Below, in pieces: positions 15,449 through 38,353 of a DNA stretch of 64,000 nucleotides. The notes below the pieces were generated by a model, which ran no database searches, was not told where the DNA came from, and worked only from the letters and a program-made list of their open reading frames with translations. Source of the stretch: a virus. How positions within the stretch are numbered: the stretch's first letter is position 1; every line of letters begins with the position of its first letter. The stretch lies in the IMG/VR virus record IMGVR_UViG_3300032294_003343, positions 96,001 through 160,000 of that record; one strand, given 5' to 3'. The position numbers and the translations under genes were made by a program.

Positions 15449-16035
15449 TGAAAGAATTTATAGAATTTTACGAAAAAGTTAAATCAAACAAAACACATAT
15501 TATTACAATCGATTCTGTAAAGTTTATTGTTCGTGAAATTACTTGGAAAGAAGGCTTACTGATTGATGCAAAATCGTTCAGAAAGAAAGACAATATTGTT
15601 TATCAAAATTCAGAATTTGAAAAAAGAGAAATTTTGAAGATTGCTATTCTGAGAGTATTTGACACCAATACTAATACTGATTACATACCTGATTTTGAAA
15701 CATCATTATTAGAAAAACTTGATTACACAATCATAGAAAAACTTTGGGTCGAATATCAAAATTATCTTTATCTTAACGCCGATGAAGCTAATTTTTACTA
15801 CATTGCAACAAAAAAATATTATAATCCAAATGATACAGAAACATACCCCGTGCCACCCTTAATCGTTGAAATTGATTATATGACACGAGGTTTAGTTTCT
15901 ATGAGTAAAGATGAATTTGCCAATCTTAGTATGAAAGAATTTGAAACAATTCAGTTAATTTTAGCTACTAAGAATGAAGCAAAGCCAGAAAGTGCAGCAG
16001 ATCTTGATATTGATTTAGAAAAAGAAATGCGCTAA
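15445..16035 (+). CDS. Tail assembly chaperone-like protein
   Basis: FIVREITWKE..ILKIAI..LLEKLDY pattern, located after the second tube-like gene. Confidence 0.45.
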   Translation: MMKEFIEFYEKVKSNKTHIITIDSVKFIVREITWKEGLLIDAKSFRKKDNIVYQNSEFEKREILKIAILRVFDTNTNTDYIPDFETSLLEKLDYTIIEKLWVEYQNYLYLNADEANFYYIATKKYYNPNDTETYPVPPLIVEIDYMTRGLVSMSKDEFANLSMKEFETIQLILATKNEAKPESAADLDIDLEKEMR

Positions 16036-16841
16036 AGAGTAAATGAAAGTGTGTTTTTGTATTTATTTCTAACCATTTCAGCAATTGCAGTTCTGTCCCA
16101 TTGATGGAATAAAAAATACTTCTCTCCACTTTCATTACAAACATCTGTTCCATCAAAAAATACATCAACATTATCTCTTTTTATTGCTTCACCTGTAGCA
16201 CAAAAAGTATCAGTATATGGATGGCATAGCATAATATTAGGATTTTGTTTAAATTGTCTGTATAGATATCCCAACATAGCCTGATCTGGAATTACATAGC
16301 TATATCTTCTATTTATTGCTGTGAGAATAAGTGTGCAATAATTTAGAAATGCACTAGTTTTTCCGCCATATGTTCCACCATTGATTACATAAGAATCATC
16401 ATATCTTTCTTTGTTAAAAACTAATGTATTCAAAGTCCATTCATGCCATGCAGCATTACAATCATTTTCTTTTATTTGCATGCCTTCACAAACTAAAAAT
16501 AACTCTTTTTCTGGATGGCTTGCCATAAACTCAAATGGATCTTTTTGAATAATTACATCTCGCATGTCCCATTGCATGCAGTAATCAAAATCTTTACCAT
16601 GTTCACAAATCCAATTGTAATATGCAACATATGTCAAGTTGAAAGGATTCATGTTTTCTTCAACTTCTACTATATAATCGTAGTATTTTCTAAGTTTCTC
16701 TATGTTGCTTTGTGAAACATCATGTACACAAATTAGTTTCTTGAAGTTTTTTTGTTTTGCTAAAGATTGAAGATAAATATCAGCATCAATAGAGTCTAAT
16801 ATTCGATCACCTTGCAAAAAATTAAGCATTAAGTTATTCAT
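16032..16841 (-). CDS. Putative GT-A glycosyltransferase
   Basis: WDMRDVIIQKDPF (DxxD-type motif), VINGGTYGG, PDQA and HQWDR motifs. Confidence 0.65.
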   Translation of the reverse strand: MNNLMLNFLQGDRILDSIDADIYLQSLAKQKNFKKLICVHDVSQSNIEKLRKYYDYIVEVEENMNPFNLTYVAYYNWICEHGKDFDYCMQWDMRDVIIQKDPFEFMASHPEKELFLVCEGMQIKENDCNAAWHEWTLNTLVFNKERYDDSYVINGGTYGGKTSAFLNYCTLILTAINRRYSYVIPDQAMLGYLYRQFKQNPNIMLCHPYTDTFCATGEAIKRDNVDVFFDGTDVCNESGEKYFLFHQWDRTAIAEMVRNKYKNTLSFTL

Positions 16842-16853
16842 AAAAACATTATA
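16839..16853 (-). promoter_or_regulatory. -10 box 6 nt before ATG (leaderless-type)
   Basis: G-TATAAT-gttttt-ATG on the minus strand. Confidence 0.6.
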
Positions 16854-16878
16854 CTCTTTAGAATCAAAAATTATTTTT

Positions 16879-17712
16879 CTATTTATTAAAATTACCAGAT
16901 ATCAATAATTCTTCATAAGTTTTCTTAATTCCAGAATGCAATCCAATCAAATTGATATCAAAAAGATGCAGATTATATTCACCATAATAACTTAATCCTA
17001 AATTTTCTTTTTCAATAATTGTTTCAACATTATAATCAGATAAGTTATTGATAATTGTTGCAATATCAGATAGTTTGTATTTTTGCTGATATGAACAATT
17101 TATAGTTTGTTGTTTTACACTAGCATCGATTGTGAACTTTACAACTTGACATAAATCATCCATATAGAAAAAGTCCATAAATTTATCTTGATGAATTTGT
17201 ATAGGTTTTCTATTTATGTAATTTATTATGTTAGCTTTGATCATTCTAGAAGTAAGTTCATCACTATTGAAAACATTAAATAGTCTTATATTATAAAAAC
17301 CTTTCAATAAAAGTCCAGATTTAGCAATTAAGTTCTTGCTCATTCCATATGGATCGATTGGATGTGCGCACTTCAAATCAGTTGAAAAGTCTATGTTATA
17401 TCTTCGGTCTAATTCTGCACCTGATCCAAATGAAATATATTTATCAAAAGACAAAGAATTATCTAAAATATTTTGATGCATAATACAGTTTTCGTAAAAA
17501 ACAGTATTTTCATCATCTTTAAGTCTACTTCCACCAGTTGTTGCAGTATGAATGACAACATCAAAATACTTGTCTTTAAAAAAATGTTTTACTTCTTCTG
17601 AATTTAATAAATTAAGATTTGATCTATTAGTCAGAGTCAAATTATAATCTTTAAGATTTTTTGCTAAATTTCTAGCTACAAATCCATTTGAACCTGTGAT
17701 CAGGATATTCAT
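16879..17712 (-). CDS. NAD-dependent epimerase/reductase (extended SDR)
   Basis: ILITGSNGFVA Rossmann motif and YGMSK catalytic motif. Confidence 0.85.
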   Translation of the reverse strand: MNILITGSNGFVARNLAKNLKDYNLTLTNRSNLNLLNSEEVKHFFKDKYFDVVIHTATTGGSRLKDDENTVFYENCIMHQNILDNSLSFDKYISFGSGAELDRRYNIDFSTDLKCAHPIDPYGMSKNLIAKSGLLLKGFYNIRLFNVFNSDELTSRMIKANIINYINRKPIQIHQDKFMDFFYMDDLCQVVKFTIDASVKQQTINCSYQQKYKLSDIATIINNLSDYNVETIIEKENLGLSYYGEYNLHLFDINLIGLHSGIKKTYEELLISGNFNK

Positions 17713-19430
17713 TTAATGTCTTCTAAACTTCCAGGAATAATTTTGCCATTTTCATCAATACCTTTTGCAGATACTTTTGGCTCATGAAGTTCCCAAGGAT
17801 CTGTCATCACTTCAATAATTTCAGGACCTGAATGTGAAAAAGTACTTTGTATTAAGTCAAGTTGATTATTGTTCAATATTTGACTGTACTTAATCCCAAA
17901 AGCATCAGATATTTTTTTGAAATTTGGAAGAGTAACTCCTGATGAAGGTTCAGAACCAACTAAATTTCCTTTGAAAAATGAATTTTGTGTAAGTTTGATT
18001 GATAAGTACCCATCATTATTCAGAATAAATATTTTGATTGGTAAATTATGATGAACGACAGTTTGCAATTCTTGCAAGTTCATCATAATACTCCCGTCGC
18101 CTTCTATGCAAATGATAGTTTTATTACATCCATAATAGGCTCCTATTGCTGCAGGAAGACCATAGCCCATTGGAGCAGTACCTTCATTAGAAAAAAGCTG
18201 TTGATTTGATCGCAGCCTTACAGTCTTGTGAAGAACAACATGAGCTGTTCCATCACTAGTAACTATAATGCTATCATCATCAAGAAATTCTTCTAACTTT
18301 TCAGAAAACACATAGGTACTTACATAGTTTTCTAACTTTCTATGTTTATCTAATACAAGTTGTTCTTCAGATCTTTTGAGCTTAATATAGTCCAGCCATT
18401 CTCTTATATCAAAGTTTGCTTCATATGTTTCAAAAAACTCAAAAAAATTCTTTAAATCTAAATTGATTCCAATGAAAGAATCATTTTGATCAAATTTTTT
18501 TATTTCAAAATTATCTACATCTATTACTATTTTTTTAGCATTTGGAGCAAACTTGTTAAGATCGTATCCAATTACTTTAGGATTTAATCTAGACCCTAAA
18601 GATATAATAAAATCAGCTTGTTGAATTATCTGGTTTGATGTTTTTTGCCCTAAGATTCCAATTTTACCAGTGTAAAATTCATAATCATAATTGATAATGT
18701 CTACTGCTGAATGAGGTCCTGATACAACTGGCAACTGATACTTTTGAATAAAATTCTTAAGCTCATTGATGGTGCCAGAAGATTTAATTCCATTGCCTAT
18801 AACAACAACTGGCTTTGATTTTTGAAAATTATCAAAACAACTTTTCAATAATTCTATTTGTTTTGAATTGTCACTTTCATCAAATATTTGAGCAGATTTA
18901 AGAGATTCAACATCAATTTCCGAGGCTTGAATATCAAGAGGTACATCCAACCATACGGGTCCTGGTCTCTTATTAACGCATTCATTCCATGCAGTTTCCA
19001 AATGATATTTAATTTCATTTTTATCATAAACTGTTTCTGCATACTTAGTCATAGTTTTTACTGTATTGACAATATCAAATTCTTGTTGTCCAATTTGTCT
19101 ACATCCAGTATTGATTGACATTTGCTCAGTAGGAACTTGACCAGATATAACTATCATTGGGATAGAATCTTGGTAAGCACACAAAACTCCAGTAATTGCA
19201 TTTGTTCCTCCTGGACCAGTAGTAACCAAAACACAACCAGGTTTACCAGAAGTTCTGAAATATGCTTCTGCTGCCATTGCACAGGCTTGTTCATGGTGAT
19301 TGCAAACGTATCTTAAGCCTGATTTACCAAGTGAATCAATTAAATGCATACAGCCTCCACCGGATACGGTGAAGACTGTGTCTATGCCTTTTTCTTTTAT
19401 AAATTCAAAAATATAGTCTGATAATTTCAT
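17709..19430 (-). CDS. ThDP-dependent acetolactate-synthase-like enzyme (YerE-like sugar branching enzyme)
   Basis: HHEQACAMAAEAY, TTGPGGTNAITG and GDGSIMMNLQEL..LNNDGY motifs, in a sugar-cluster context. Confidence 0.85.
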   Translation of the reverse strand: MKLSDYIFEFIKEKGIDTVFTVSGGGCMHLIDSLGKSGLRYVCNHHEQACAMAAEAYFRTSGKPGCVLVTTGPGGTNAITGVLCAYQDSIPMIVISGQVPTEQMSINTGCRQIGQQEFDIVNTVKTMTKYAETVYDKNEIKYHLETAWNECVNKRPGPVWLDVPLDIQASEIDVESLKSAQIFDESDNSKQIELLKSCFDNFQKSKPVVVIGNGIKSSGTINELKNFIQKYQLPVVSGPHSAVDIINYDYEFYTGKIGILGQKTSNQIIQQADFIISLGSRLNPKVIGYDLNKFAPNAKKIVIDVDNFEIKKFDQNDSFIGINLDLKNFFEFFETYEANFDIREWLDYIKLKRSEEQLVLDKHRKLENYVSTYVFSEKLEEFLDDDSIIVTSDGTAHVVLHKTVRLRSNQQLFSNEGTAPMGYGLPAAIGAYYGCNKTIICIEGDGSIMMNLQELQTVVHHNLPIKIFILNNDGYLSIKLTQNSFFKGNLVGSEPSSGVTLPNFKKISDAFGIKYSQILNNNQLDLIQSTFSHSGPEIIEVMTDPWELHEPKVSAKGIDENGKIIPGSLEDIK

Positions 19431-20500
19431 TGCAAATCATCTTTTGTTAATGGACTACCTTTTTTCAAATCTTTGTTTAGGATAAATTCATTATCCATAA
19501 ATTCTCTAGAAGTGATTTGATTTATGTCTGGTAAATAAGGTACAGCCGCATAAACATCCTTTAATGTTACAGTATACCCTTTTTTCAAATCCTTATTTAT
19601 ATAAAAGCCTCGGTAAAGAGCAGCTAAATATTCACTCTCTTTTTCATCAATAATTCTTCTTTGTGATGAGGATGTTCCACACATTTGGTTTGACTTATGA
19701 AATGCTTTGAACCATTCGTCAACTTGATGAGGTAAAGAACAATATTTACTTACTTCTTTCTGCTCATGGTTTTTTGGATAAGGTATATCAATGTGTCTCT
19801 CCCAAGTCCTTACTCCTTTTGCATAAGAAATGAACATTGAAGATTCCCAATCGTGATACTCATGAGTGGAAAAACCAATTGTATGATTTGGATATTTAGA
19901 TTTCAAATAGTCTATTTGATTTAACTCAAGTTCAGAGTCTTCGCTTGGATATTTAGAAACACAATGATTTATAGCTAATGGGATTTTTCTATTGTCAAAA
20001 AATCTAACGACATCATCAATTTGTTTTTCATTAGCCCCACCAGTAGAGATAATTACAGGTTTCTTAGTACTGGCAATTTTTTGAAGCAGAATCCAATCAT
20101 TGATATCTGCACTAGAAACTTTGATAATTGGTAAATCAAATTGCACACACCAATCAACAGACTTTTCGTCAAAAGGTGTAGCCATGGGTATGCAATTAGT
20201 TTTCTTGATGTATTCGACAAGTTCAGACATTTCGTCAAAACTTAGCTTTGTTTTTAAAGTTTTTTGAATGTATCTTTCTTTTTTGGGAAGAGTAAGTAAA
20301 TCTTGATTCTTCCCATTATCAACAAACTCACTATGAATGAAATTTTCAACATCTCTGAATTGCAACTTAATTGCAGCTTTGATTTTGTTATTTCGTACAA
20401 CAGAAGCAAATTCTTTAACTATTTGTTTGCCTCTTGACAAAGAGCCCCAATGGTTATTTGCAAGCTCTAAAACAAATAAATTATGGAAAATTTCGTTCAT
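19427..20500 (-). CDS. neuB: N-acetylneuraminate/nonulosonate synthase family protein (NeuB/SpsE) with SAF domain
   Basis: ELANNHWG, KLQ, TPFD, IISTG, HCVSKYP, GFSTH and ERH motifs. Confidence 0.85.
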   Translation of the reverse strand: MNEIFHNLFVLELANNHWGSLSRGKQIVKEFASVVRNNKIKAAIKLQFRDVENFIHSEFVDNGKNQDLLTLPKKERYIQKTLKTKLSFDEMSELVEYIKKTNCIPMATPFDEKSVDWCVQFDLPIIKVSSADINDWILLQKIASTKKPVIISTGGANEKQIDDVVRFFDNRKIPLAINHCVSKYPSEDSELELNQIDYLKSKYPNHTIGFSTHEYHDWESSMFISYAKGVRTWERHIDIPYPKNHEQKEVSKYCSLPHQVDEWFKAFHKSNQMCGTSSSQRRIIDEKESEYLAALYRGFYINKDLKKGYTVTLKDVYAAVPYLPDINQITSREFMDNEFILNKDLKKGSPLTKDDLQ

Positions 20501-20507
20501 AAAAATA

Positions 20508-21404
20508 TTATAGTGTAAATTGAACTAAAGGTAAAGTAATTCCAGTTTGATCAATAACTTCAGACTTGTATCCATATGATTCCAAAATCTTTGTAAATGT
20601 ATCAATGTTAAGTACTCCATTTACATTATGAGCTTCCACAATAATTTTGGGTTTATAATGATCAAAAAACTCTTTATTTTCAAAGATAAAAGATTCTGCA
20701 CCCTCAATATCACACTTAATAAAATCAACTCTATCAAGGTTATATTTTTGTACGATATCAAAAAGAGTGTAACATTTTACTTCAACAATCTCGCCTCTTT
20801 CTCCAACAAGATCAACTGCTGAAGATCCCATATTTTGTTCAAGCGAAAATTTCAGTGTTCCAGTATGTGTCCAAACTGCAGCATTTAATAATTCAATATT
20901 CTCTGATTGAAACAACGCAATATTTTTTTGCAAGCATTCGAAGTTTGTAAAATCAGGTTCCATAGCAATAACTTTTCCTGACTTTCCAACATTATTTGAA
21001 AAAGCTATTGACGTTAAGCCAGAATATGCACCAAGGTCAAACACTACATGTCCTTCTGACAAATTAGCAAAATCCAAATATTGCTCAATTGTTACAAATG
21101 GTTCAGCAAGTGATGGGCAAAAAGGCTCAAATAAATCAAATCCCTTGACCTTATGTTGTGCAGGTTTTGAAAAATCTACTACTTTTTTCCCATCTACAAT
21201 TTTGTAAGAAACTGAACTAAAATAATAGTCAAACCCATACATTATAGTTTTTATGTAAACATTTTGTCTTTTATTGATAATAACGATTTGATCATCATTA
21301 ATAATGTGGATATTGTCATCTACTTCTACCACTTGCATGTTCAGTTCTAACATTGCTTCATAAACTGTTTTCTTTTTTGGTAAAACATCAGTTTCAGTTA
21401 CCAT
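20508..21404 (-). CDS. FkbM-family SAM methyltransferase
   Basis: VFDLGAYSG, AMEPD and DFIKCDIEGAE motifs. Confidence 0.85.
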   Translation of the reverse strand: MVTETDVLPKKKTVYEAMLELNMQVVEVDDNIHIINDDQIVIINKRQNVYIKTIMYGFDYYFSSVSYKIVDGKKVVDFSKPAQHKVKGFDLFEPFCPSLAEPFVTIEQYLDFANLSEGHVVFDLGAYSGLTSIAFSNNVGKSGKVIAMEPDFTNFECLQKNIALFQSENIELLNAAVWTHTGTLKFSLEQNMGSSAVDLVGERGEIVEVKCYTLFDIVQKYNLDRVDFIKCDIEGAESFIFENKEFFDHYKPKIIVEAHNVNGVLNIDTFTKILESYGYKSEVIDQTGITLPLVQFTL

Positions 21405-22351
21405 ATAAAATTCTCCTTATAGTATTTGATAATTTCAATAATTTCATTATCAAAAATACACTTTGGTGTCCATCCAAGATTTCGCAATTTACTGTCATTG
21501 AGTGCATATCTGACATCTTGACCTGGTCTAACAATATTAAAATCGATGTACTCTCTCGGATCTTCAATATGTTTGTCAAAGTAGATATCTAATATTTTTT
21601 CAACTGTTCTTATATTTGATTGTTCAAATCCACCAGCAACATTAAATATCTCATTTTTACAATTGTTCTCAATTATAGTCAAAACAGCGCTGGCGGTATC
21701 TTTAGCATGCAACCAATTTCTTACAGGTTTGCCTTCTGCATGTAAAGGTATTCTTCTGCCAAGTTTAAGGAATTTACACGCTTTTGGGATAAGTTTTTCT
21801 ACATATTGACCTATGCCATAATTATTTGTTGGTCTGATTATAATATAGGGTATGTTGTAAGTTCTTGACCATGCTGTAATCAATTGATCTGCAGCAGCCT
21901 TGGTTGCTGAATAAGGGTTAGATGGCTTAAGAACGTCAGTTTCAATATGTTCACCATCTGATATATCACCATAAACTTCATCAGTGCTAAAATGAATAAA
22001 TGTAGGAACAATATATCCCTCTTTTTGATAAGCCCTCAAAAGTTCAAGAATGTTATAAACACCATCAATGTTTGAATGTAAAAAATCATCACTTTTACGT
22101 ATTGAATTATCTACATGTGTTTCGGCTGCAGTATTGATAAAATAATCGCAGTCAACCAATCTATCTAAATCACATATATCTTTTTCTTCAAACTTAAACT
22201 TTGGATTAGATTTAAATTCTTCCAATTTAGAAATTCTTGATGCATATGTACATTTATCAATTCCGAAAACATACCAGCCTTTATCAAGACAAGCTTGAGT
22301 TACATATGACCCAATAAATCCTAAGCATCCTGTCACGTATACTACTTTCAT
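21398..22351 (-). CDS. rmlB: dTDP/NDP-glucose 4,6-dehydratase
   Basis: GCLGFIG, AAETHVDNS, STDEVYG, YSATK and RPGQDVRY motifs. Start moved to ATG 22351 (ATGA overlap). Confidence 0.85.
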   Translation of the reverse strand: MKVVYVTGCLGFIGSYVTQACLDKGWYVFGIDKCTYASRISKLEEFKSNPKFKFEEKDICDLDRLVDCDYFINTAAETHVDNSIRKSDDFLHSNIDGVYNILELLRAYQKEGYIVPTFIHFSTDEVYGDISDGEHIETDVLKPSNPYSATKAAADQLITAWSRTYNIPYIIIRPTNNYGIGQYVEKLIPKACKFLKLGRRIPLHAEGKPVRNWLHAKDTASAVLTIIENNCKNEIFNVAGGFEQSNIRTVEKILDIYFDKHIEDPREYIDFNIVRPGQDVRYALNDSKLRNLGWTPKCIFDNEIIEIIKYYKENFIW

Positions 22352-23223
22352 GATGTTTTCTTTTTCTTTTTGCAAGCTAGCATATATAAGTTTGTGAAAT
22401 GAACATAATCTAAAGCTGCCTGATAATTCAAAACTTGCTCCTTGATAATTTCAAGTCCACAAGATTCAATTAAGCAATGCAAAGATTTATTAGAATAAAA
22501 ATTTATATGTTCATGCCAATGTTTTTTAGTTTTATATAGATCTAATGACTCATTATTTTTTGCCATAAGATCTTCACAAGGAACCTCTAGATATAAAACC
22601 GTATTTTCGCTCATGGATTCAATTATATCCATAAGTAATTGCTTTGGATAAGAGACATGTTCAAGAACATTGCTACAAACTACCAAATCATAAGCATGAT
22701 TTTTAATCATAGATGGTTCTATTTTTTCACAATTTGGAAACAATGTTTTGTCTGTCCATTCATAGATGTAAACTTTGCTAGCTGTTTCTAAAAATGGAGT
22801 GTTTTTACCATCATCTCCTCCCCAATCCAATACGAGTGGTTTAATGCTGATAAAGTCAAGAAAACTTTCAATTTCTTTTTTATATCCAATAGCTACATCC
22901 AAATTTTTCTGTTTATCTTTATAACCTGGTTCATAAGAATCTCTGACATCTATATATTTTGATTCTCTGTAATTCTCATATAAGTTTTTTAATTCATGAT
23001 CTTCAAATCTGAAATCACTGAATAAAAAACCACAATCTTGGCATTGCACAGACTTGCAAGGCATATAAATAGTGCCATTTGGTACTCCATACAAATTCCA
23101 TGTGTCATCTATTTCAAATAAATCATAATCGAATATCATTTTTGACATAAATGGCATCAAAATAGCAGAAGATTTTTCTAGTTTTTTACTTTCACAACAA
23201 GGGCAGGATAAAGCTAAATTCAT
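22348..23223 (-). CDS. Class I SAM-dependent methyltransferase with N-terminal Zn ribbon
   Basis: CPCC..CQDC, VLDWGGDDG, SNVLEHV, YLEVP and HEHINFY motifs. Confidence 0.8.
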   Translation of the reverse strand: MNLALSCPCCESKKLEKSSAILMPFMSKMIFDYDLFEIDDTWNLYGVPNGTIYMPCKSVQCQDCGFLFSDFRFEDHELKNLYENYRESKYIDVRDSYEPGYKDKQKNLDVAIGYKKEIESFLDFISIKPLVLDWGGDDGKNTPFLETASKVYIYEWTDKTLFPNCEKIEPSMIKNHAYDLVVCSNVLEHVSYPKQLLMDIIESMSENTVLYLEVPCEDLMAKNNESLDLYKTKKHWHEHINFYSNKSLHCLIESCGLEIIKEQVLNYQAALDYVHFTNLYMLACKKKKKTS

Positions 23224-23350
23224 TTTGCATTCTCAAAAAAATATTATACATTCATAATTAACAAACGTAAAAACTTGACCAACATAATCTCTATAGTTAT
23301 TGAAAATTGATTTTTTTATAAGTAGGTATAATTAAATTAGGATTATTTAT
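23224..23350. promoter_or_regulatory. Divergent promoter region of the sugar island
   Basis: AT-rich gap between divergent operons, with TGTATAAT on the minus strand (23243-23250) and GGTATAAT on the plus strand (23325-23332). No well-spaced -35 box. Confidence 0.55.
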
Positions 23351-23752
23351 ATGAATAGAAAATATTTACCAACTCTTTCAGAACTCGTTGATCGTCTTTC
23401 AATTGTGCAGCTTAAAGAAGTTTTTATAACTGAACATAAGGCTGAATATGCAGAGGAAATTGCTGCAATTGTTCATGATATCCAGGCACATCTTGATGAA
23501 AATGATGCTGTTGTAGATGCAGAGGTAATTCGTGCAATAGTTGTTCTTTCGCAAATGAATTTACATATTTGGCATAATGAAACTAATTATCGTAAGGGTA
23601 TCAAGGATGGAAACAATCTTGAACTAACTCATGGATTGAATGGAATTAGAAATACTGCTAAAAACAAAATTCAAGAAGTTTGTGGTGGTAGAAAAGATTA
23701 TAAGATCGATTGTCTTGCTGCTGATTTCAAAGATTGGGAGATTAGCTGGTAA
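23351..23752 (+). CDS. Small helical protein (DUF6165-like)
   Basis: SELVDRLSIVQLKE..NLHIWHNE..RNTAKNKI pattern. Confidence 0.55.
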   Translation: MNRKYLPTLSELVDRLSIVQLKEVFITEHKAEYAEEIAAIVHDIQAHLDENDAVVDAEVIRAIVVLSQMNLHIWHNETNYRKGIKDGNNLELTHGLNGIRNTAKNKIQEVCGGRKDYKIDCLAADFKDWEISW

Positions 23753-24690: not shown

Positions 24691-24697
24691 GAATATT

Positions 24698-25717: not shown

Positions 25718-25751
25718 ACTGTTAGTATAATGAGAATAAGGTAAAAAATAT

Positions 25752-28458: not shown

Positions 28459-28484
28459 GCATATAATTATTTAGAGGTTTTAAT

Positions 28485-31112: not shown

Positions 31113-31121
31113 AATAAAGTT

Positions 31122-32117
31122 ATGAAAATATTAATTATTACCACAAAATGGGCTGCTGGTACAATGAAAAATGTATATTGTGCTACGCATAGATCTTTAG
31201 TTAGACCAGCTCAAGAGTTATTTAAGAATAATCCAGATGTAGATTTAGCAATCGAATATATCGAAGTAAATGAAATTTGGTCTGCAAAGCAGTTAAATGA
31301 GAGATTGCTCAGAAATGACTTTGATATTTGTGTTTTTTCGCCTTTTGAGAGCATAGTTCCATCTTTAGATACTACAAAAAAACTTGGTAAAAAATTGTTC
31401 ATTTGTGTATGGGATCAACTCAATGGAGCAACAAATAACAGAGCAGTTAACATGCGATTGTTCTTAAAAAATCCATACAATAATGGTGTTGTCAATTTTG
31501 AACATTCTATGTGTGCATACTCGCAATATTGCAACATTTTAGTAGGCGGAAACTTATATGGACAAAAGTTTCCTAATATTTACGCAGTTTACGAACCCAT
31601 GGATACTACCGTTTTGTATCCTGTGCCAGAAGAAGAAAAATCACATGAATTAGCTTTCATTGGATCACTTTATGAATTTGAAAGACAGTGGTTTGTCAAT
31701 AAACTTTTAGAGAAAAAATTTCCATTGCATGTGCTAGGTGGCAAAGGTGAATCAGAACAAAAACTCTCTTATAATGATTGGGCAAAGGTTAATAGAGAAA
31801 CAAAAATCTCACTGAATTTCAATGGTAATTTTTGCATGGGCTGCCTTAAAGGAAGAGTGTGGGAAATTGCTGCTTGCAACAATCTTATGATAGCAACTAT
31901 ACCTGATGTATACAAATTTCCCAATGGATCATGGTTTACAGAGGATGTTCACTATGTAAGTATTGATAAAGTCAATTACTTAGATAAGATTAGATATTAC
32001 CTTAATAATCCACAAAAAAGAATAGCTATTGCAAATGCTATGCATGAACACTGGAAGAATAATTACACAGCTGAAATTTGGTGGAATAATATATTCAATT
32101 GGTCCAAAAATGTTTAA
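31122..32117 (+). CDS. GT-B glycosyltransferase, CgeB-like (paralogue 2)
   Basis: KKLGKKLF..WD, ETKISLN, KGRVWEIAAC and DKIRYYLNNPQKR motifs. Confidence 0.75.
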   Translation: MKILIITTKWAAGTMKNVYCATHRSLVRPAQELFKNNPDVDLAIEYIEVNEIWSAKQLNERLLRNDFDICVFSPFESIVPSLDTTKKLGKKLFICVWDQLNGATNNRAVNMRLFLKNPYNNGVVNFEHSMCAYSQYCNILVGGNLYGQKFPNIYAVYEPMDTTVLYPVPEEEKSHELAFIGSLYEFERQWFVNKLLEKKFPLHVLGGKGESEQKLSYNDWAKVNRETKISLNFNGNFCMGCLKGRVWEIAACNNLMIATIPDVYKFPNGSWFTEDVHYVSIDKVNYLDKIRYYLNNPQKRIAIANAMHEHWKNNYTAEIWWNNIFNWSKNV

Positions 32118-32180
32118 TTATAATATTTAATAATTATTGATAACTCGGATTTCCAACCAGACTTAAGAGACATATATAAA

Positions 32181-32786
32181 ATGAAAAACTATACTGAGCA
32201 AGAATTGATCGATTTTGAAACTGATATTGCAAACTGTTTCAACAATTTAATGATAAAGGCTGTAATCCATTTATCAAATGGAAATGAAAAACAACTTATT
32301 GATATATTCAAAAATATCAATGAAGATGACTGGGTATTCTGTTCATGGAGATCACACTATCAGTGTTTATTGAAAGGTGTTCCTAGCGAAAAACTTAAGC
32401 AAGACATTATAGACGGTAAATCTATGGCTTTAAATTACCCAGAATATAAAGTGTATTCTTCTGCAATTGTAACAGGCAATATACCAATTTCAGTTGGAGT
32501 GGCATTAGATATTAAGCGCAAAAATTTATCCAACCACGTTTGGTGTTTTGTTGGCGACATGACTTCAGAAACTGGCACATTTTTTGAAAATTGGAAGTTT
32601 GCTGTCAATCACGATTTACCAATCACCTTTGTTATAGAAGATAATAATAAATCTGTGTGTTCTGACACTAGAAAAGTATGGAACACTGAAAAGTTATTCT
32701 TTGAAGAACCTAAACCAAAAGTTATATTCTTCAAATATGAATCAAAATATCCACATGCTGGAGCTGGAAAAAGGATACAGTTTTAA
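32181..32786 (+). CDS. Short ThDP-dependent E1 alpha-like subunit
   Basis: IHLSNGNE, SWRSHY and GDM..EDNN motifs in 201 aa. Confidence 0.8.
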   Translation: MKNYTEQELIDFETDIANCFNNLMIKAVIHLSNGNEKQLIDIFKNINEDDWVFCSWRSHYQCLLKGVPSEKLKQDIIDGKSMALNYPEYKVYSSAIVTGNIPISVGVALDIKRKNLSNHVWCFVGDMTSETGTFFENWKFAVNHDLPITFVIEDNNKSVCSDTRKVWNTEKLFFEEPKPKVIFFKYESKYPHAGAGKRIQF

Positions 32787-33322
32787 TGAAATACGCAGAT
32801 GAATTAAAAAGATCAATGGATTGGCTTGCTTCTAAAGAAGATACATTATTCTTGGGACAGGCAGTAGAATATCCAGGCACAGCGATGTCAAACACATTGA
32901 AAGATGTAAATCCAGAAAAATTATTAGAAGTACCAGTAGCTGAAGACATGCAAATGGGAATGACTCTAGGTTTAGCTTTAAATGGCACTTTTCCTATTTC
33001 TTTTTTCCCCAGATGGAATTTCTTAATATTAGCAGCAAATCAATTAGTAAACCACATTGATAAAATCAAGATTATGTCTGATGGAAATTTTAAACCAAAA
33101 ATTATCATTAGAACATCTATTGGTGCACAAAGACCACTTCACCCACAGCATCAACATATAGCTGATTACACAGCTGGTTTCAAGGCTATGTGTGACTTTG
33201 TTGATATCATCAGATTAGAAGAAGCACATCAAATTTTTGATGCTTATAAATATGCATATGAAAGAACTGATGGTAGACCAACAATCTTGGTTGAATGGGG
33301 AGATTTCCTTAACGAAAAATGA
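32786..33322 (+). CDS. Short E1 beta-like subunit (pyrimidine-binding domain only)
   Basis: FLGQ, EVPVAEDMQMG, NQLVNH and PQH motifs in 178 aa, with no C-terminal domain. Confidence 0.8.
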   Translation: MKYADELKRSMDWLASKEDTLFLGQAVEYPGTAMSNTLKDVNPEKLLEVPVAEDMQMGMTLGLALNGTFPISFFPRWNFLILAANQLVNHIDKIKIMSDGNFKPKIIIRTSIGAQRPLHPQHQHIADYTAGFKAMCDFVDIIRLEEAHQIFDAYKYAYERTDGRPTILVEWGDFLNEK

Positions 33323-34290
33323 AAGTTTTAATCGTTGCTGATCATTTTAGAAACATTGAATCTCATGCTTATGCCTTTTTAGTAAGAAGCTTTGAGGGTG
33401 CTTTTATTGGCAATAATGAATATGAATTGCTGGTAAGACATATTGCACCTAATGAAATTTGGTCAGCTGAAGCATTGTCTAAAGTTTTATTAGAAACAGA
33501 TTTTGATATTGCTGTTGTAAGTCCACTTTGGCACGTTCATGTTCAGCTTCATGTTGCCAAAAAGTTAGGCAAAAAACTTTTTATTCAGTATTGGGATACA
33601 CATTCTCCAATACATACTTCTTCTAGACTTACAAATTTTAAGATATTCTTGAAATCTATAACAGAATGCGGACATACATTTGTTCACACATGCAAAGAAT
33701 ATTCACAATATTGTAATGTATTAATAGCTGACTATGGAGATGGAGAATTTGAACCAAACATTTATTGTGTACCAACTCCTATAGATCCAAGAAAATTTTA
33801 TCCAGTTCCTGAAGATGAAAAACAATATGATCTTTTATTTTTTGGACAGCTTTCTACCAATGAAAGAAAATTTTTTCTACCTGGCATTAAAAAAGCCAAC
33901 CTGCCAATTACCATAAAAGGTGTTGACTCACAGCCAGATTGGGATGAATTTGCTGAAATTAACAGAAAAGCAAAAATTAGTTTAGTTCTTAATGCAAAAG
34001 CTTCAGGTGAGGGCCAAAGAAAAGGTAAAATTTATGAGGCAGCTGCTTGTAAAAATTTAGCTATTGTAACTCATCCCGAGGCCTACTATGATAGAGGAAA
34101 GCACATTTTTAAAGAAAATGTTCACTATGTTTCAATTGATAAACAAAACTATCGAGATAAAATTAAATACTATTTAGATAATCCTGAAGAAAGATTGAAG
34201 ATTTCACAACAGTTATATGATTATTACATAGAAAATTACTCTGCTAAAGCATTTTGGTATAATATATTTAAGTACTCGAAAGATAAATAA
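33319..34290 (+). CDS. GT-B glycosyltransferase, CgeB-like (paralogue 3)
   Basis: KKLGKKLF..WD, KAKISL, KGKIYEAAAC and DKIKYYLDNPEER motifs. Confidence 0.75.
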   Translation: MKVLIVADHFRNIESHAYAFLVRSFEGAFIGNNEYELLVRHIAPNEIWSAEALSKVLLETDFDIAVVSPLWHVHVQLHVAKKLGKKLFIQYWDTHSPIHTSSRLTNFKIFLKSITECGHTFVHTCKEYSQYCNVLIADYGDGEFEPNIYCVPTPIDPRKFYPVPEDEKQYDLLFFGQLSTNERKFFLPGIKKANLPITIKGVDSQPDWDEFAEINRKAKISLVLNAKASGEGQRKGKIYEAAACKNLAIVTHPEAYYDRGKHIFKENVHYVSIDKQNYRDKIKYYLDNPEERLKISQQLYDYYIENYSAKAFWYNIFKYSKDK

Positions 34291-34291
34291 A

Positions 34292-35461
34292 ATGAATAAA
34301 TTTTTCCTACCATTGATGAATGATAATATCGACAAAGAAGATGTAAATTCAGTGATTGAGTTTTTATCTCAAGATAATATTCCAAAGCTGACTAATGGAC
34401 CAAAAGTTGTGGAATTTGAAAATGCATGGGGACAATGGTTAGGTACAAAATACAATTTGTTTGTAAATTCAGGTGCTTCTGCTAATGAATTAACAATGTT
34501 AGCTTTAGCTCACATTGTTGGTGAAGGCGAAATTATTGTCCCACCCTTAACTTGGATATCAGACATTTCTTCAGTTCTTTTTGCTGGTCATAAACTTGTA
34601 TTTGTTGATGTCAATTTTACTAACTTATCATTTGATATAGATAAACTTAAAGAAGCAATTACACCAAATACAAAAGCCATATTTTTAACACACGTTTTGG
34701 GAATCAATGGCTTAACAGATGAGCTTATTGATATTTGCGAAAAGAATAATATCTTATTAATTGAAGATGTTTGTGAGTCCCATGGTACAACCTTCCAAGG
34801 CTGCAAGGTTGGTAATTTTGGGTTTGCCAGTAATTTTAGTTTTTATTTTGCTCACCATATGTCAACAATTGAAGGTGGGATGATTAGTACAAACAATTGG
34901 GAATTTTATCAAGTTTGTCGTGCCCTAAGATCTCATGGGATGACTAGAGAAATGACAAGTGATTCTATGAAAGTTTCTATTGCAATGGATAACCCTGATT
35001 TAAATCCTGATTTTATATTTTTACGTCCAGCTCACAATTTTAGAAGTACTGAAATTAATGCGGTTATAGGTTTATCGCAATTGCCAAAACTTGATGCAAA
35101 AAATCAAGAAAGAATTGATAATTTTGATTTATTTATATCGAATTTGGATTCTGAAAAGTATCATGTTGCTCTAAACACTGAAGGTAATTGTAATTACGCT
35201 TTTATTGTAATTCTAAAAGATGCTGATTTTTCAAAAAGAAATGAATTAGAGAAAAAATTACAAAACAACGGCATAGAATTTAGAAGAGGATTATCTGGTG
35301 GTGGTAATCAAATGAGACAGCCTTTTTTCAAGTCTGTTTACACTGATTTTTCAAATTTTCCAAATATTGAACATATTCATAATTATTCATGGTATATCGG
35401 AAATTATCCAGGCTTAGAAAAAGAAAAAATTATAAAACTTCTTGAGGTTTTGAATGGCTAA
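34292..35461 (+). CDS. DegT/DnrJ-fold PLP enzyme, ColD-like NDP-4-keto-6-deoxysugar 3-dehydratase
   Basis: VNSGASAN, IEDVCESHG and SFYFAHHMSTIEGG (His at the Schiff-base Lys position). No Fe-S Cys cluster. Confidence 0.8.
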   Translation: MNKFFLPLMNDNIDKEDVNSVIEFLSQDNIPKLTNGPKVVEFENAWGQWLGTKYNLFVNSGASANELTMLALAHIVGEGEIIVPPLTWISDISSVLFAGHKLVFVDVNFTNLSFDIDKLKEAITPNTKAIFLTHVLGINGLTDELIDICEKNNILLIEDVCESHGTTFQGCKVGNFGFASNFSFYFAHHMSTIEGGMISTNNWEFYQVCRALRSHGMTREMTSDSMKVSIAMDNPDLNPDFIFLRPAHNFRSTEINAVIGLSQLPKLDAKNQERIDNFDLFISNLDSEKYHVALNTEGNCNYAFIVILKDADFSKRNELEKKLQNNGIEFRRGLSGGGNQMRQPFFKSVYTDFSNFPNIEHIHNYSWYIGNYPGLEKEKIIKLLEVLNG

Positions 35462-35963
35462 GGTTGAAGCTTTATCCAATGTTATAATCAAACAAGTCGA
35501 TAGCTTCCATGATCACAGAGGGCAGCTTTTTACTTTATGGGAAAAATCTGACTTTGACTTTTTAAATTTCAACCATGATAAAGTTGCAATTTCGCACAAA
35601 AATGTACTAAGGGGACTTCATACTGATAAATCTTGGAAGCTTATCACTTGCATTCATGGATCAATACAGTTAGTAGTTGCAAATATTGATAAAAACAGTC
35701 AGGAATATTTAGACCATATAGATATCATCATAAATTCTGATGACAAAATTAAAACTTTTGTTCTTGTTCCACCTGGTTATGTAAATGGGCATCTCGTACT
35801 AAGTGATGAAGCTGTGTTTTATTACAAATGGTGTTACGAAGGTGAATACCCAGACATGAAAGATCAGTTGTCAGTAAATTGGGCAGATCCAAAGTTAGAC
35901 ATAAATTGGCTTACAGATGACCCAATACTTTCTGACAGAGATAAAAAGACCCGATTATTATGA
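35454..35963 (+). CDS. rmlC: dTDP-4-dehydrorhamnose 3,5-epimerase family
   Basis: FHDHRG, NVLRGLH, KLITCIHG, VPPGYVNG and PILSDRD motifs. Confidence 0.88.
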   Translation: MAKVEALSNVIIKQVDSFHDHRGQLFTLWEKSDFDFLNFNHDKVAISHKNVLRGLHTDKSWKLITCIHGSIQLVVANIDKNSQEYLDHIDIIINSDDKIKTFVLVPPGYVNGHLVLSDEAVFYYKWCYEGEYPDMKDQLSVNWADPKLDINWLTDDPILSDRDKKTRLL

Positions 35964-36730
35964 AAGAACTATATAAAGATATCAAAATATTAGTAATTGG
36001 CGACTCTTGTACTGATATTTTCACCTATGGAAATGTACTAAGACTTGCTCCAGAAGGGCCAGCTCCTGTTTTCAACCCTTTATTTACTACAAATAATGGT
36101 GGTATGGCATTAAACGTAGCTGCAAATATTTCTGCTATTGGAGCTAATGTCAAGCTAATTACCCAAGATGAAAATATAACTAAAACTAGATATATAGACC
36201 AAAGAACTAATTCACTATTATTGAGGATAGATGAAAATGATACATCATCTAAAATTTCAAAACATATACTCAATAATTTAATAGATAATGTATATGAAGA
36301 TGTCAAATATGATGCAATTATTGTAAGTGATTATTGTAAGGGTTTTTTATCAGAAGAAGATATAGAAACTATAGCTACTAGGAATTCGAAAGTATTTTTA
36401 GATACAAAAAAGATCTTAGGCGAATGGTGCAATGATGTAACATTCATAAAAATTAATCATACTGAATATGATAAGACAAAGCATACTATCGATTATTTAG
36501 GTTTGTACGGGAAGATGATTATAACAAGATCTGATGAAGGTTGTGAGTATGATCATTCAATTTTTCCAGTTGAAAAAGTAAATATCAAAGATGTTTCCGG
36601 CGCAGGAGATACATTTATTTCTGGACTTGTATGTGAATTTATCAGAACAAATAATATTGTTGAGGCGATAAAGTTTGCCCAAGAATGTGCTACTCAAGTA
36701 GTTCAAAAGAAGGGAGTTTGTACTATATGA
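35960..36730 (+). CDS. PfkB-family sugar kinase, RfaE/HldE kinase-domain-like
   Basis: ILVIGD, RLAPEGPAPV, GGMALNVAAN, VSDYCKG and DVSGAGDT motifs. Confidence 0.85.
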   Translation: MKELYKDIKILVIGDSCTDIFTYGNVLRLAPEGPAPVFNPLFTTNNGGMALNVAANISAIGANVKLITQDENITKTRYIDQRTNSLLLRIDENDTSSKISKHILNNLIDNVYEDVKYDAIIVSDYCKGFLSEEDIETIATRNSKVFLDTKKILGEWCNDVTFIKINHTEYDKTKHTIDYLGLYGKMIITRSDEGCEYDHSIFPVEKVNIKDVSGAGDTFISGLVCEFIRTNNIVEAIKFAQECATQVVQKKGVCTI

Positions 36731-37017
36731 ACATGAAAGAATATTATGCAATGTACTTAACTTTGCATCAAAACAAAATTTGCAGACGATTGCATGTCTT
36801 AGGACAGTTTATGACAATTATGTGGGTTGTAGGCTGTTTTCGTTTTGAATATTATTGGTTTTTATTATTGACACCATTTATTGTTTATCCGTTTGCTTGG
36901 TCTGGTCATTATTTCTTTGAGAAAAATAAGCCAGCTGCATTTAAGGATCCAGTTAAGGCTAAAATTAGCGATTGGATTATGCTATTTGATATTCTTCGAG
37001 GCAAAGTACCATTCTAA
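36727..37017 (+). CDS. DUF962/Mpo1-like small membrane protein
   Basis: YLTLHQNKICRRLHVLG..YPFAWSGHYFFEKNKPAAF. Start at ATG 36727 (ATGA overlap). Confidence 0.8.
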   Translation: MNMKEYYAMYLTLHQNKICRRLHVLGQFMTIMWVVGCFRFEYYWFLLLTPFIVYPFAWSGHYFFEKNKPAAFKDPVKAKISDWIMLFDILRGKVPF

Positions 37018-37044
37018 AAAAAAGAGGCTTGTAGCCTCTTTTTT
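37016..37044. terminator. Bidirectional intrinsic terminator
   Basis: aaaaaaaagaggct-tgt-agcctctttttt between convergent genes. Confidence 0.85.
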
Positions 37045-38353
37045 ATTTGTCAAAAAAACTATCTAGAACTTCACCTATATAATCAATTTGTTCTTCTGTT
37101 ATAACTGGAGACGTTCCTAAAAAGAAAGTATCAGTGGTGACTTTTTTAGCAACTGGAAAGTCATTAAGATCCATATCGGCAACTAAATGACTATAAGCTG
37201 GTTGCATCAAAATGTTTCCAGCAAAATATGGTCTAGTTTGAATTTTTTTAGATTCTAAATACTGACAAATATCACTTCTCTTAAAAGGTGCGTTATCTTT
37301 GACAGTTATTGGGAATGCAAACCAATTTACATCTGCATTCTTTTGTGCTACTGGAAGAACAAAATATTCTTCATACTTAGAAAACTTTTCTGTTAATAAT
37401 TTGTGATTTCTTTGACGTAAATTTTTAATTTCAGCAAGTTTATCAATTTGAGCTAACAACATACTGGCTTGAACTTCGATTGGTTTTAAGTTATAACCAA
37501 TTTCTTCATAGACATATTTATGGTCAAATACTTCTCCTGGCATACTAGGTAGCCATTCTGAAAATCTTTGATTGCAAGCTCCACATTCTGTAATATTTTG
37601 TTTACCAATACAAAAACATCCACGACCCCAATCACGAATAGAACGGATCACTCTTTCTAAATTATCATCATTACAAACAACTAACCCGCCTTCTCCACAA
37701 GTAATATGATGAGCAGGATAGAAAGAACAAGAAGCCATAGTGCCGAAGCTGCCCAAAGGATTACCGTCGAATGATGAACCTAAAGCATCACAACAATCCT
37801 CAAGTAATATTAATCCATAATGATCAATAATATCTAATAATCTGTACATGTCAGGAGGATTTCCTAACACATGAGCAAATGTTATGATTTTTATTTCTGG
37901 ATCTGCCTGTAAAGTAGCTTCTACATCATCTAAATTTAAGTTTAAACCATCTAAAGAAATATCTACAAAAACAGGCTTGAAACCACATTGAAAAATCGGG
38001 TTTATAGTAGTTGGAAAACCAGCAATAGGAGTAAGTACTTTAGTTCCTTCAGGTAAATTAAGATATCTTTTTGACTTCAAAGCTGACATCATGAGAAGAT
38101 TTGAGCTACTACCTGAGTTAGTCAATAAAGCGTGGTTTTTACCGAATAGAGAGGCTAATTTTCTCTCTGCTTTATATGCTTCAGCTCCTAAAACTAACCA
38201 ACCATCTAACAACGTAGAGACTGATCTAACAATTTCAGTATGATCAAAATAAGGACCAGCATAATGAACATGATCTTTGCCAGGTCTCCATTTTTTATTT
38301 GGTTCGCTTTTGATATAATCTTCAACTATTTTGAGCAATTCTTCTTTAGTCAT
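37043..38353 (-). CDS. rfbH: CDP-4-keto-6-deoxy-D-glucose 3-dehydrase (E1, RfbH/DdhC)
   Basis: TNSGSSSNL, FPTTINP, SFYPAHHITCGEGG, RDWGRGCFC..C (Fe-S) and DHKYVY..IGYNLK motifs. Confidence 0.9.
   Translation of the reverse strand: MTKEELLKIVEDYIKSEPNKKWRPGKDHVHYAGPYFDHTEIVRSVSTLLDGWLVLGAEAYKAERKLASLFGKNHALLTNSGSSSNLLMMSALKSKRYLNLPEGTKVLTPIAGFPTTINPIFQCGFKPVFVDISLDGLNLNLDDVEATLQADPEIKIITFAHVLGNPPDMYRLLDIIDHYGLILLEDCCDALGSSFDGNPLGSFGTMASCSFYPAHHITCGEGGLVVCNDDNLERVIRSIRDWGRGCFCIGKQNITECGACNQRFSEWLPSMPGEVFDHKYVYEEIGYNLKPIEVQASMLLAQIDKLAEIKNLRQRNHKLLTEKFSKYEEYFVLPVAQKNADVNWFAFPITVKDNAPFKRSDICQYLESKKIQTRPYFAGNILMQPAYSHLVADMDLNDFPVAKKVTTDTFFLGTSPVITEEQIDYIGEVLDSFFDK

Follow-up and report, generated by a model that had tools for sequence, protein, structure and literature searches.

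To our knowledge, mycobacteriophages are the only phages for which virion glycosylation by their own enzymes has been demonstrated, virus-made rare sugars are known mainly from giant viruses of eukaryotes, and RfbH- or ColD-type 3-deoxygenation, YerE-type branching and B12 radical S-adenosylmethionine (SAM) sugar chemistry have no prior description in a virus. The Megavirinae make amino sugars, for example viosamine, bacillosamine and quinovosamine, and T4-like cyanophages carry large sugar or 'lipopolysaccharide' clusters with soluble glycosyltransferase (GT) and sugar genes in a variable slot. The mycobacteriophage cassettes described by Freeman and colleagues in 2023 reportedly hold a few GT or methyltransferase genes and draw on host sugar nucleotides. 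Precedents for the locus described here are the capsid and tail-tube glycans of mycobacteriophages, as summarised in PMC12619734, and the fibrils of the Megavirinae with their clade-specific rare-sugar clusters (PMC10117803). The locus is an island of sugar-enzyme genes at positions 16032-38353 of a window of 64,000 nucleotides (the whole stretch of DNA analysed, bases 96001-160000 of a single viral contig of 169,183 bp, IMG/VR record IMGVR_UViG_3300032294_003343). It is the variable glycan locus of an uncultured freshwater phage family with genomes of about 300-490 kb, and what sets it apart is its size together with a chemistry of deoxy and branched sugars. Literature searches turned up no account of a comparable locus in huge phages; a 2025 paper on large aquatic 'moraphages' merely lists glycosyltransferases among core genes.

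The contig is 47% complete by CheckV, with an estimated whole genome of about 360 kb, and relatives reach 300-490 kb, so that only part of a very large phage genome is captured here. An island at this place, with these coordinates, had been proposed from the letters of the window alone (the sequence-only reading), and it is real. Its genes are contiguous and mostly encode sugar enzymes, as proposed, and they number 25 tightly packed open reading frames (ORFs) instead of the 23 first counted. The gene on its right was correctly named as that of the capsid, and the gene on its left, t196, is the last of a conserved five-gene block encoding an 816-aa protein, a 499-aa protein, t128, t412 and t196.

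38428..39282, minus strand: major head protein (capsid), right boundary gene (phrog_2522, E 3.6e-68).
15445..16035, plus strand: t196, left boundary gene, convergent with the first island gene, which encodes a GT-A-fold glycosyltransferase (4-nt overlap).

The capsid protein has 156 matches in IMG/VR, and the slot between its gene and t196 was compared among those at least 94% identical, including the relatives G003 (89% complete) and G005 (88% complete) and contigs of up to 358 kb. Both junctions, capsid gene to island and island to t196, recur in more than 20 independent IMG/VR contigs from different metagenomes. Between them lie 0.9 to 22 kb of shuffled sugar genes, and capsid protein identity stays at 94-100% whether or not an island is present.

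L024: slot of about 0.9 kb with three small ORFs and no sugar gene.
L013: slot consisting of the GT-A gene alone.
G005: slot of 7.7 kb with a quite different set (HAD-nucleotidyltransferase fusion, RuBisCO-like protein, GHMP kinase).
L017: slot of about 8 kb.
G004: slot of 12.5 kb.
G003: slot of 17.7 kb.
G002: slot of 20.8 kb.
This window: slot of 22.3 kb, the largest fully bounded case among those compared.

This comparison of island content across related phages, which the sequence-only reading had suggested, shows that the locus is a hypervariable, dispensable cassette slot common to the whole phage family, and that is the main comparative fact which the first reading missed. Shared island genes are 40-95% identical between relatives, compared with 97-100% for the capsid protein. 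The flanks align continuously at the nucleotide level with those of G002 and G004 (81-88% identity), and alignment of the 16-38 kb region is patchy, with the portion at 25-32 kb lacking a counterpart in G002, G003 and G004. Genes travel in recognisable modules: kinase, Mpo1-like, RmlC-like and ColD-like genes with the short E1 pair; radical SAM, DJ-1, cupin and 306-aa protein genes with the long E1 pair; FkbM with NeuB-like and YerE-like genes; the 4,6-dehydratase gene with those for the 133-aa protein and a 312-aa short-chain dehydrogenase/reductase (SDR); and a 277-aa SDR gene with the GT-A gene. Islands of relatives also hold genes for HpcH aldolases, a 4Fe-4S protein, DHQ-synthase-like enzymes, PhyH dioxygenases and an acetaldehyde dehydrogenase. 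In G004 and G001, LAGLIDADG homing endonuclease genes lie between the capsid gene and the island (L084:11603-12748 and L086:17509-18714, both on the minus strand), and such endonucleases may promote cassette exchange at the slot. The G005 slot encodes a wholly different sugar pathway (L085:1848-3023 and L085:3027-4391, plus strand; L085:5287-6267, minus strand), comprising a RuBisCO-like enzyme (type III or OiaX-like, 155 bits), a beta-phosphoglucomutase-like HAD-nucleotidyltransferase fusion and a heptose-7-phosphate-kinase-like GHMP kinase.

The same comparison bears on whether the island is phage DNA at all. Nothing beyond the bacterial look of the genes speaks for an artefact in which host O-antigen DNA was mis-assembled or mis-binned onto phage DNA. 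The recurrence of both junctions speaks against it, as do flanks and island that run contiguously on contigs of up to 358 kb and a composition that is the phage's own: relative synonymous codon usage of the island correlates with that of the rest of the contig at 0.988 (control blocks 0.961-0.993), GC content at third codon positions is 0.218 versus 0.211, and the tetranucleotide correlation is 0.980, within range. An artefact of this kind has next to no chance of being correct. Because phage-like composition is combined with the same junctions in independent metagenomes, the island is native and an assembly chimera was rejected. These data show that the island genes are long-term residents of the phage lineage; the first reading had likewise noted matching composition and favoured a phage-resident pathway over a chimera. 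It had also noted the lack of mobile-element genes at the edges, and indeed no integrase or transposase gene lies within the window, so that an island borne by either was rejected as well. A megablast search of the island against 50,697 GenBank phage records returned no match.

The 25 ORFs fall into three groups: seven minus-strand genes running as one operon from 23223 down to 16032, seventeen plus-strand genes forming a divergent operon at 23351-37017, and a lone minus-strand gene, from 38353 down to 37043, behind the terminator of the capsid gene. In the list that follows, SDR, ThDP, PMP, PEP and NDP stand for short-chain dehydrogenase/reductase, thiamine diphosphate, pyridoxamine phosphate, phosphoenolpyruvate and nucleoside diphosphate.

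16032..16841, minus strand: GT-A fold (GT6/GT8/A64R-like) retaining-type glycosyltransferase by predicted structure, 269 aa, anchor gene of the locus.
16879..17712, minus strand: SDR, candidate YerF-like ketoreductase (PF01370, 2.7e-19).
17709..19430, minus strand: YerE/JanthE-like ThDP-dependent carboligase, 573 aa, for C-branching of a keto-sugar (best PDB match 8rph, JanthE, 364 bits).
19427..20500, minus strand: NeuB-family PEP-condensing enzyme, SpsE-like, of uncertain substrate (PF03102, 5.8e-39).
20508..21404, minus strand: FkbM-family methyltransferase (TIGR01444, 101 bits, over cut-off).
21398..22375, minus strand: NDP-glucose 4,6-dehydratase, RmlB-like (TIGR01181, 302 bits, cut-off 365).
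22348..23223, minus strand: class I SAM methyltransferase (PF13489, 3.4e-14).
23224..23350, no strand: divergent intergenic region with presumed promoters, 127 nt, the sole spacer within the island longer than 100 nt.
23351..23752, plus strand: 133-aa helical protein heading the plus-strand operon, the most conserved island gene (81-94% identity in relatives).
23752..24690, plus strand: extended SDR, an epimerase, dehydratase or reductase (PF01370, 7.1e-35; relatives 86-96% identical).
24698..25717, plus strand: GT-B (GT4-like) glycosyltransferase 1 (PF13524; AlphaFold2 model, mean predicted local distance difference test score (pLDDT) 90.9).
25752..27260, plus strand: B12-binding radical SAM enzyme, HpnJ-like, for methylation or rearrangement (PF02310 and PF04055).
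27261..27803, plus strand: DJ-1/PfpI family protein (PF01965, 4.5e-33).
27784..28458, plus strand: cupin with a mannose-6-phosphate-isomerase-like C-terminal fold (PF01050, 2.4e-4).
28485..29405, plus strand: 306-aa protein, possibly a 2-oxoglutarate-Fe(II) oxygenase (sole match TIGR04324, E 0.0019).
29395..31112, plus strand: ThDP E1 alpha (277 aa) and E1 beta (303 aa), pair 1 (PF00676; PF02779 and PF02780).
31122..32117, plus strand: GT-B glycosyltransferase 2 (PF13524, 1e-14).
32181..33322, plus strand: short ThDP E1 alpha (201 aa) and E1 beta (178 aa), pair 2 (PF00676, PF02779).
33319..34290, plus strand: GT-B glycosyltransferase 3 (PF13524, 5.4e-10).
34292..35461, plus strand: ColD-type PMP-dependent NDP-4-keto-6-deoxyhexose 3-dehydratase (best PDB match ColD 2gms, 175 bits).
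35454..35963, plus strand: RmlC-like cupin, a 3,5-epimerase or ketoisomerase (PF00908, 4.6e-32; rmlC model 93 bits, under cut-off).
35960..36730, plus strand: PfkB-family sugar or sugar-phosphate kinase, RfaE domain I-like (TIGR02198, 123 bits, under cut-off).
36685..37017, plus strand: Mpo1-like (DUF962) protein, always paired with the kinase (PF06127, 1e-28).
37043..38353, minus strand: RfbH/E1, Fe-S PMP-dependent NDP-4-keto-6-deoxyglucose 3-dehydrase (NF011936, 443 bits, cut-off 423).

A role in sugar chemistry or glycosyl transfer has domain-level support for about 20 of the 25 ORFs, and those without a clear sugar role include the 133-aa, 306-aa, DJ-1/PfpI and Mpo1-like ORFs. The two DegT-fold proteins, which had first been read as aminotransferases, are 3-dehydratases instead, because both carry a His in place of the catalytic Lys. 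In the RfbH protein (323 bits to Yersinia E1, PDB 3bcx) this His and the Fe-S Cys cluster are conserved, and in the ColD-type protein the His aligns with ColD His188, the position held by Lys in aminotransferases. With this substitution in both proteins and no aminotransferase in the island, aminosugar synthesis was rejected. The presence of two different 3-dehydratases supports dideoxy chemistry, and the YerE/JanthE-like enzyme together with two E1 alpha/beta pairs supports branching chemistry; along with the methylation enzymes, this gene content supports the dideoxy, branched and methylated sugars predicted earlier. The 573-aa ThDP enzyme scores 364 bits to JanthE, a characterised YerE-like ketone carboligase (PMC12188165), against at most 223 bits to acetolactate synthases. 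Its gene is translationally coupled to that of the reductase at 16879-17712, which adjoins the GT-A gene in relatives too. The E1 pairs have no E2 or E3 partners present, and pair 2 adjoins the ColD-like gene in relatives as well. The 4,6-dehydratase (65-74% identity to relatives) reaches only 63 bits with the cytidine diphosphate (CDP)-type model, compared with 302 bits for the deoxythymidine diphosphate (dTDP)-type model.

Several of the remaining genes are less readily placed. The radical SAM enzyme scores 125 bits with the HpnJ model, under its cut-off. Inspection of start codons places the likely start of the adjacent cupin at the ATG at 27784 and not at the TTG at 27712, and the 306-aa gene accompanies the cupin, DJ-1 and radical SAM genes in L015, L100 and L106. 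The 133-aa protein belongs to a very abundant family without an assigned function, tied to the 4,6-dehydratase and an SDR: it matches at least 8000 clusters (90% identity) in a protein collection, the top 120 at 88-95% identity, and has no Pfam, NCBIfam or PDB relative. The sialic-acid-type (nonulosonate) sugar claimed by the sequence-only reading was rejected. The NeuB-like protein scores far under the cut-offs (PseI model 125 bits, cut-off 340; NeuB model 114 bits, cut-off 400), its best PDB match is the SpsE-like 3g8r (173 bits), and no CMP-sugar synthetase (PF02348), the activating enzyme for such sugars, is present here or in the 89%-complete relative G003.

The tailoring set as a whole comprises a 4,6-dehydratase, two 3-dehydratases, three ThDP carbon-transfer units, reductases and epimerases, two SAM methyltransferases and a B12 radical SAM enzyme. 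A host-made NDP-hexose would be the starting substrate and would first undergo 4,6-dehydration, after which 3-deoxygenation by either of two routes would give 4-keto-3,6-dideoxy sugars. These would then be C-branched by the ThDP enzymes to yersiniose-like products, and subsequently reduced, epimerised and methylated. From this gene content we infer that the locus would make at least two 3,6-dideoxy sugars, C-branched and methylated. The earlier description of the pathway as unusually complete does not hold: it is not self-sufficient, because it has no nucleotidyltransferase and no E3-type reductase. A sugar-1-phosphate nucleotidyltransferase (PF00483) is absent from this contig and from G003 and occurs only in the islands of G001 and G005, and an E3-type reductase (PF00175) is absent from all five records examined, G003 included, so that in the absence of an E3 (DdhD/AscD) partner for E1 a host reductase would have to serve. 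That host is probably Gram-negative. A scan of genome contigs for RfbH gave five matches spread over mixed phyla, which allows no host call. One contig, L089 (JBBARF010000157.1, 7.4 kb, from a Bacteriovoracaceae metagenome-assembled genome (MAG) bin), carries a contig-end RfbH fragment 76% identical to the phage protein; as this is closer than any other cellular match, L089 may be a phage contig binned into the MAG.

Enzymes of these types (YerE-like, E1 pairs, B12 radical SAM, ColD/RfbH, and GTs with an AviGT4-like fold) are typical of antibiotic deoxysugar tailoring, and this raises the question of whether the sugars end up in another soluble product, such as a modified small molecule, a modified protein outside the virion (for example an effector of the phage or a protein of the host), or a free metabolite of glycoside or cyclitol type made during infection. 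The DHQ-synthase-like cyclases, HpcH aldolases and RuBisCO-like protein of relatives would suit such a product, and MshA, BshA and the tetrahydrobiopterin GT are enzymes of GT4-like fold that act on small molecules. However, no aglycone pathway, carrier protein or exporter is present, and a soluble product would leave both the fixed position on the capsid and tail side and the conserved GT-A gene unexplained. We consider this explanation improbable.

The island encodes four GTs, one conserved GT-A and three GT-B enzymes. The gene at 16032-16841, at the edge of the island, had been left as unknown; it is, on the basis of its structural model, a GT-A glycosyltransferase with an acidic metal- or nucleotide-binding motif (D92-x-R94-D95, nearly invariant). 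The protein matches no Pfam family. Its AlphaFold2 model (pLDDT 88.2) matches GT6, GT8 and A64R structures in the PDB with a Foldseek probability of 1.00, among them BoGT6a (8.6e-9), A64R of the chlorovirus PBCV-1 (8e-8), glycogenin and alpha3GalT, and its matches in BFVD are viral GTs, many from giant viruses. The GT-A gene is convergent with and adjacent to t196 in every family locus spanning the junction. It is the sole recognisable GT gene of the G004 island and is present in three copies in G002, and distant GT-A relatives in other phages often have 4,6-dehydratase or DegT-fold genes nearby.

The three GT-B proteins are paralogues of 323-339 aa with PF13524 domains. In a structural comparison, the model of GT-B 1 gave tied Z scores of 17-20 across PimA, MshA, BshA, PglA, T4 alpha-glucosyltransferase (AGT), SdgB and AviGT4, which span lipid-, small-molecule-, teichoic-acid-, oligosaccharide-, protein- (SdgB) and DNA-directed (T4 AGT) enzymes, so the acceptor cannot be read from the fold. 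The presence of T4 AGT among these tied top matches (Z 18.6) is nevertheless one of the points that would favour DNA hypermodification, in which the GT-B enzymes put rare sugars on modified phage bases against restriction. Protein-atlas neighbours of the 339-aa GT also include a cluster with PF09198, the T4 beta-glucosyltransferase family, and variable glycans on phage DNA are known (PMC13326640; Pyle et al. 2024). Glycosylated phage bases known so far start from 5-hydroxymethylcytosine (5-hmC), 5-hydroxymethyluracil (5-hmU) or 5-hydroxycytosine (5-hoC), made by a thymidylate-synthase homologue (PMC13326640), and no such homologue (PF00303) is present in this contig, G003 or G005. Its absence from the 88-89% complete relatives counts against a DNA acceptor. 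In addition, the match to T4 AGT is a generic one, tied with many non-DNA GT4 enzymes; the islands of G002, G004 and G005 contain no PF13524 GT at all; and the locus lies among virion genes, not among replication or nucleotide-metabolism genes. We regard DNA as a very improbable acceptor. The sequence-only reading had named virion proteins or DNA, and only the former half of that proposal still serves as the best guess.

Our leading reading, held tentatively and at slightly less than an even chance, is that the island glycosylates virion proteins. The GT-A enzyme, fixed beside the t196 block, would act in the cytoplasm to prime a conserved virion protein, and the first sugar placed by it would then be extended by the GT-B enzymes. 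Candidate acceptors would be the capsid protein, which is nearly invariant, or a head or tail protein encoded nearby. The particle's glycan coat would be swapped by recombination between related phages with the underlying proteins held constant, and it could alter adsorption or shield the particle from recognition or degradation. A virion acceptor is favoured because the locus is fixed between virion genes in the whole family, with its four GT genes directly beside the major head protein gene in an arrangement conserved in relatives. It is also favoured because fold relatives of GT-A glycosylate proteins or capsid glycans (glycogenin and PBCV-1 A64R), and because members with one GT and one sugar (G004) or with a GT only (L013) fit simple protein modification. 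Further, the identity of GT-A does not track that of t412 (GT-A 70% with t412 43%; GT-A 47% with t412 77%). GT-A divergence thus follows the island and not t412, suggesting a constant acceptor and a changing donor.

The absence of export machinery, on which the sequence-only reading had built its case for a cytoplasmic acceptor, is real. The initiating transferases PF02397 and PF00953 and the flippase PF01943 are absent from this contig, G003 and G005; no polytopic membrane protein is encoded on the 169 kb contig, where no ORF has more than four transmembrane-like segments; and the island ORFs have no real membrane segment, two transmembrane-like segments being artefacts. The conclusion drawn from it does not follow from this alone, because soluble GTs can use host lipid-linked intermediates. 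Soluble GTs of the island could equally act on undecaprenyl-linked intermediates of the host, and this is a point against the virion reading. Other points weigh in the same direction. No Ser/Thr-rich extension, acceptor motif or co-varying structural protein was found, and the GT-A and GT-B folds are both generic. The island-less L024, with a 95% identical capsid protein, indicates that the glycan is not needed for assembly. A strong terminator stands between the capsid gene and the island, the left-flank genes have no proof of tail identity, and the contig covers just about 47% of the genome.

It is here that remodelling of the host envelope has to be considered, in which the soluble GTs would load rare sugars onto host lipid-linked intermediates of O-antigen, capsule, S-layer or flagellin glycan and the host's own initiating transferase, flippase and ligase would finish the job. 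The altered surface would, for example, block superinfection or allow escape from grazers, or the island would be an auxiliary metabolic one. The gene content resembles bacterial O-antigen and deoxysugar clusters (RfbH, 4,6-dehydratase, YerE-like enzyme, GT4-like GTs), the nearest cellular RfbH homologues (62-76% identity) are from freshwater MAGs, and the variability in gene content parallels the serotype diversity of hosts. Bacterial O-antigen GTs are soluble too, so missing exporters do not exclude this explanation, and the island's dispensability in L024 agrees with it. Against this stand the lack of any membrane-associated component, even in the 88-89% complete relatives, the position fixed within the virion gene region throughout the family, and fully phage-like codon usage. 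Moreover, an island reduced to GT-A (L013) or to one GT and a one-sugar pathway (G004) is better explained by protein modification. We judge the host-envelope explanation unlikely; it ranks second after glycosylation of virion proteins.

Virion glycosylation also has a more far-reaching form, in which the capsid is kept near-invariant and surface variation is delegated to a recombining 'serotype' locus, with GT-A as a protein-priming transferase and the island-less relatives as naked variants. This form is doubtful as it stands. If it is true, the locus is the viral equivalent of O-antigen diversity and bears on adsorption, grazing, particle stability or defence evasion, and the particle wears a coat of 3,6-dideoxy, C-branched, methylated sugars of kinds previously reported only in bacterial O-antigens and antibiotics.

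The surroundings of the island were less informative on the left than on the right. Past the capsid gene, the right flank encodes a scaffold-like acidic protein, a 1388-aa protein with a prohead-protease domain, and the portal. In the 1388-aa protein (41821-45987, minus strand), the head-maturation-protease domain spans residues 57-247 (phrog_18299, E 9.7e-21) and is followed by more than 1100 residues without an assigned function. On the left, where the sequence-only reading had placed a tail block, searches of PHROGs (at E up to 1), Pfam and PDB sequences (single-sequence and profile) gave just two weak hints, a head-tail adaptor match at 3048-3542 (E 4.6e-5) and a minor-tail match at 12324-13823 (E 0.014). 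Profile searches of the left flank against PDB sequences matched nothing, t196 itself is without a match in Pfam, PHROGs or the PDB, and sheath and gp25 families are missing from the contig. The t196 block is a putative tail or fibre module with chaperones, in which 'tail' is a positional guess. A 179-aa protein of the head-tail-joining region (1794-2333, plus strand) ends in a double zinc ribbon (PF12773, 2.6e-8). The t412 and 499-aa proteins are hypervariable, with 24-78% identity among phages whose capsid proteins are at least 95% identical (window positions 12324-16035 compared with L017, L018, L024, L093 and L105). The island therefore lies within a broader variable region, which may hold host-range determinants.

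With regard to expression, a k-mer scan of upstream regions found a AGGTATAAT-like / AGGTATAA(T) element at 23310-23330 (plus strand), upstream of the plus-strand operon of the island. The AGGTATAA motif occurs in four upstream regions, that of this operon and those of three genes within the first 35 kb of the contig, and the AGGTATAA(T) element may be a -10 element of phage promoters. Sigma-70-like sites numbered 109, with 94 +/- 10 expected, and T4-late-like TATAAATA sites numbered 13, with 7.4 +/- 3 expected. These scans yielded no informative promoter signal and did not verify the matching promoter style that the sequence-only reading had noted. Three terminator-like sites were found in the 20 kb scanned, compared with about 8 expected by chance, and one of them closes the capsid gene.

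38381..38412, minus strand: intrinsic terminator closing the capsid gene ahead of the island (14-bp stem, then a T run).

Deoxysugar chemistry occupies as much as 22 kb in these very large aquatic phages, whose family is widespread; this equals about 6% of a genome estimated at 360 kb. The locus offers a testable system for what phage glycans attach to, why they diversify and how the new enzymes work, examples being the compact pairs of E1 alpha and beta, the viral GT-A family and the conserved 133-aa protein. Even with the host envelope or DNA as the acceptor, the locus would remain an unusually rich example of such a system.

Set beside known systems, the island resembles the clusters of Mimivirus, Moumouvirus and Megavirus (PMC10117803, PMC9614988) in being a virus-encoded, clustered pathway of soluble enzymes for rare bacterial-type sugars together with GTs. 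As in those clusters, content differs from clade to clade and there is no reliance on membrane export, and the island GT-A has GT-A proteins of giant viruses among its top structural matches. The Megavirinae differ in infecting eukaryotes and in having glycans and fibril acceptors that were chemically shown. Unlike their amino-sugar pathways, the island has no aminotransferases, just 3-deoxygenation and C-branching. The T4-like cyanophage clusters belong to another phage lineage and use other enzyme chemistry. Virion glycosylation in mycobacteriophages, as described in PMC12619734, similarly involves GT genes in the structural gene region, with cytoplasmic attachment to capsid and tail-tube subunits there. 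The phage island, however, has up to 25 genes with a long tailoring pathway, and no C-terminal acceptor extension was found for it.

Bacterial O-antigen, capsule and flagellin islands share with this locus a fixed slot, conserved flanks and modular shuffling of sugar and GT genes; in contrast to them, the phage locus has no initiating transferase, flippase, polymerase or Maf-type transferase, and its flanks are virion genes. The pathway to yersiniose A in the Yersinia pseudotuberculosis O-antigen (DdhA-D, YerE, YerF) has the same RfbH/E1, a YerE-like ThDP enzyme with an adjacent SDR, and a 4,6-dehydratase. Differences are that the island is virus-encoded and has no CDP-glucose synthase, E3 (DdhD/AscD) or Wzx/Wzy, that its dehydratase looks dTDP-type and not CDP-type, and that it adds ColD-type, E1 alpha/beta, radical SAM and methylation modules. 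Judged by gene content, the island lacks defining features of an O-antigen cluster, a nonulosonate pathway, a T4-type DNA glycosylation system and a complete yersiniose pathway; among the branches of 3,6-dideoxyhexose synthesis, those leading to yersiniose and colitose come nearest to its chemistry.

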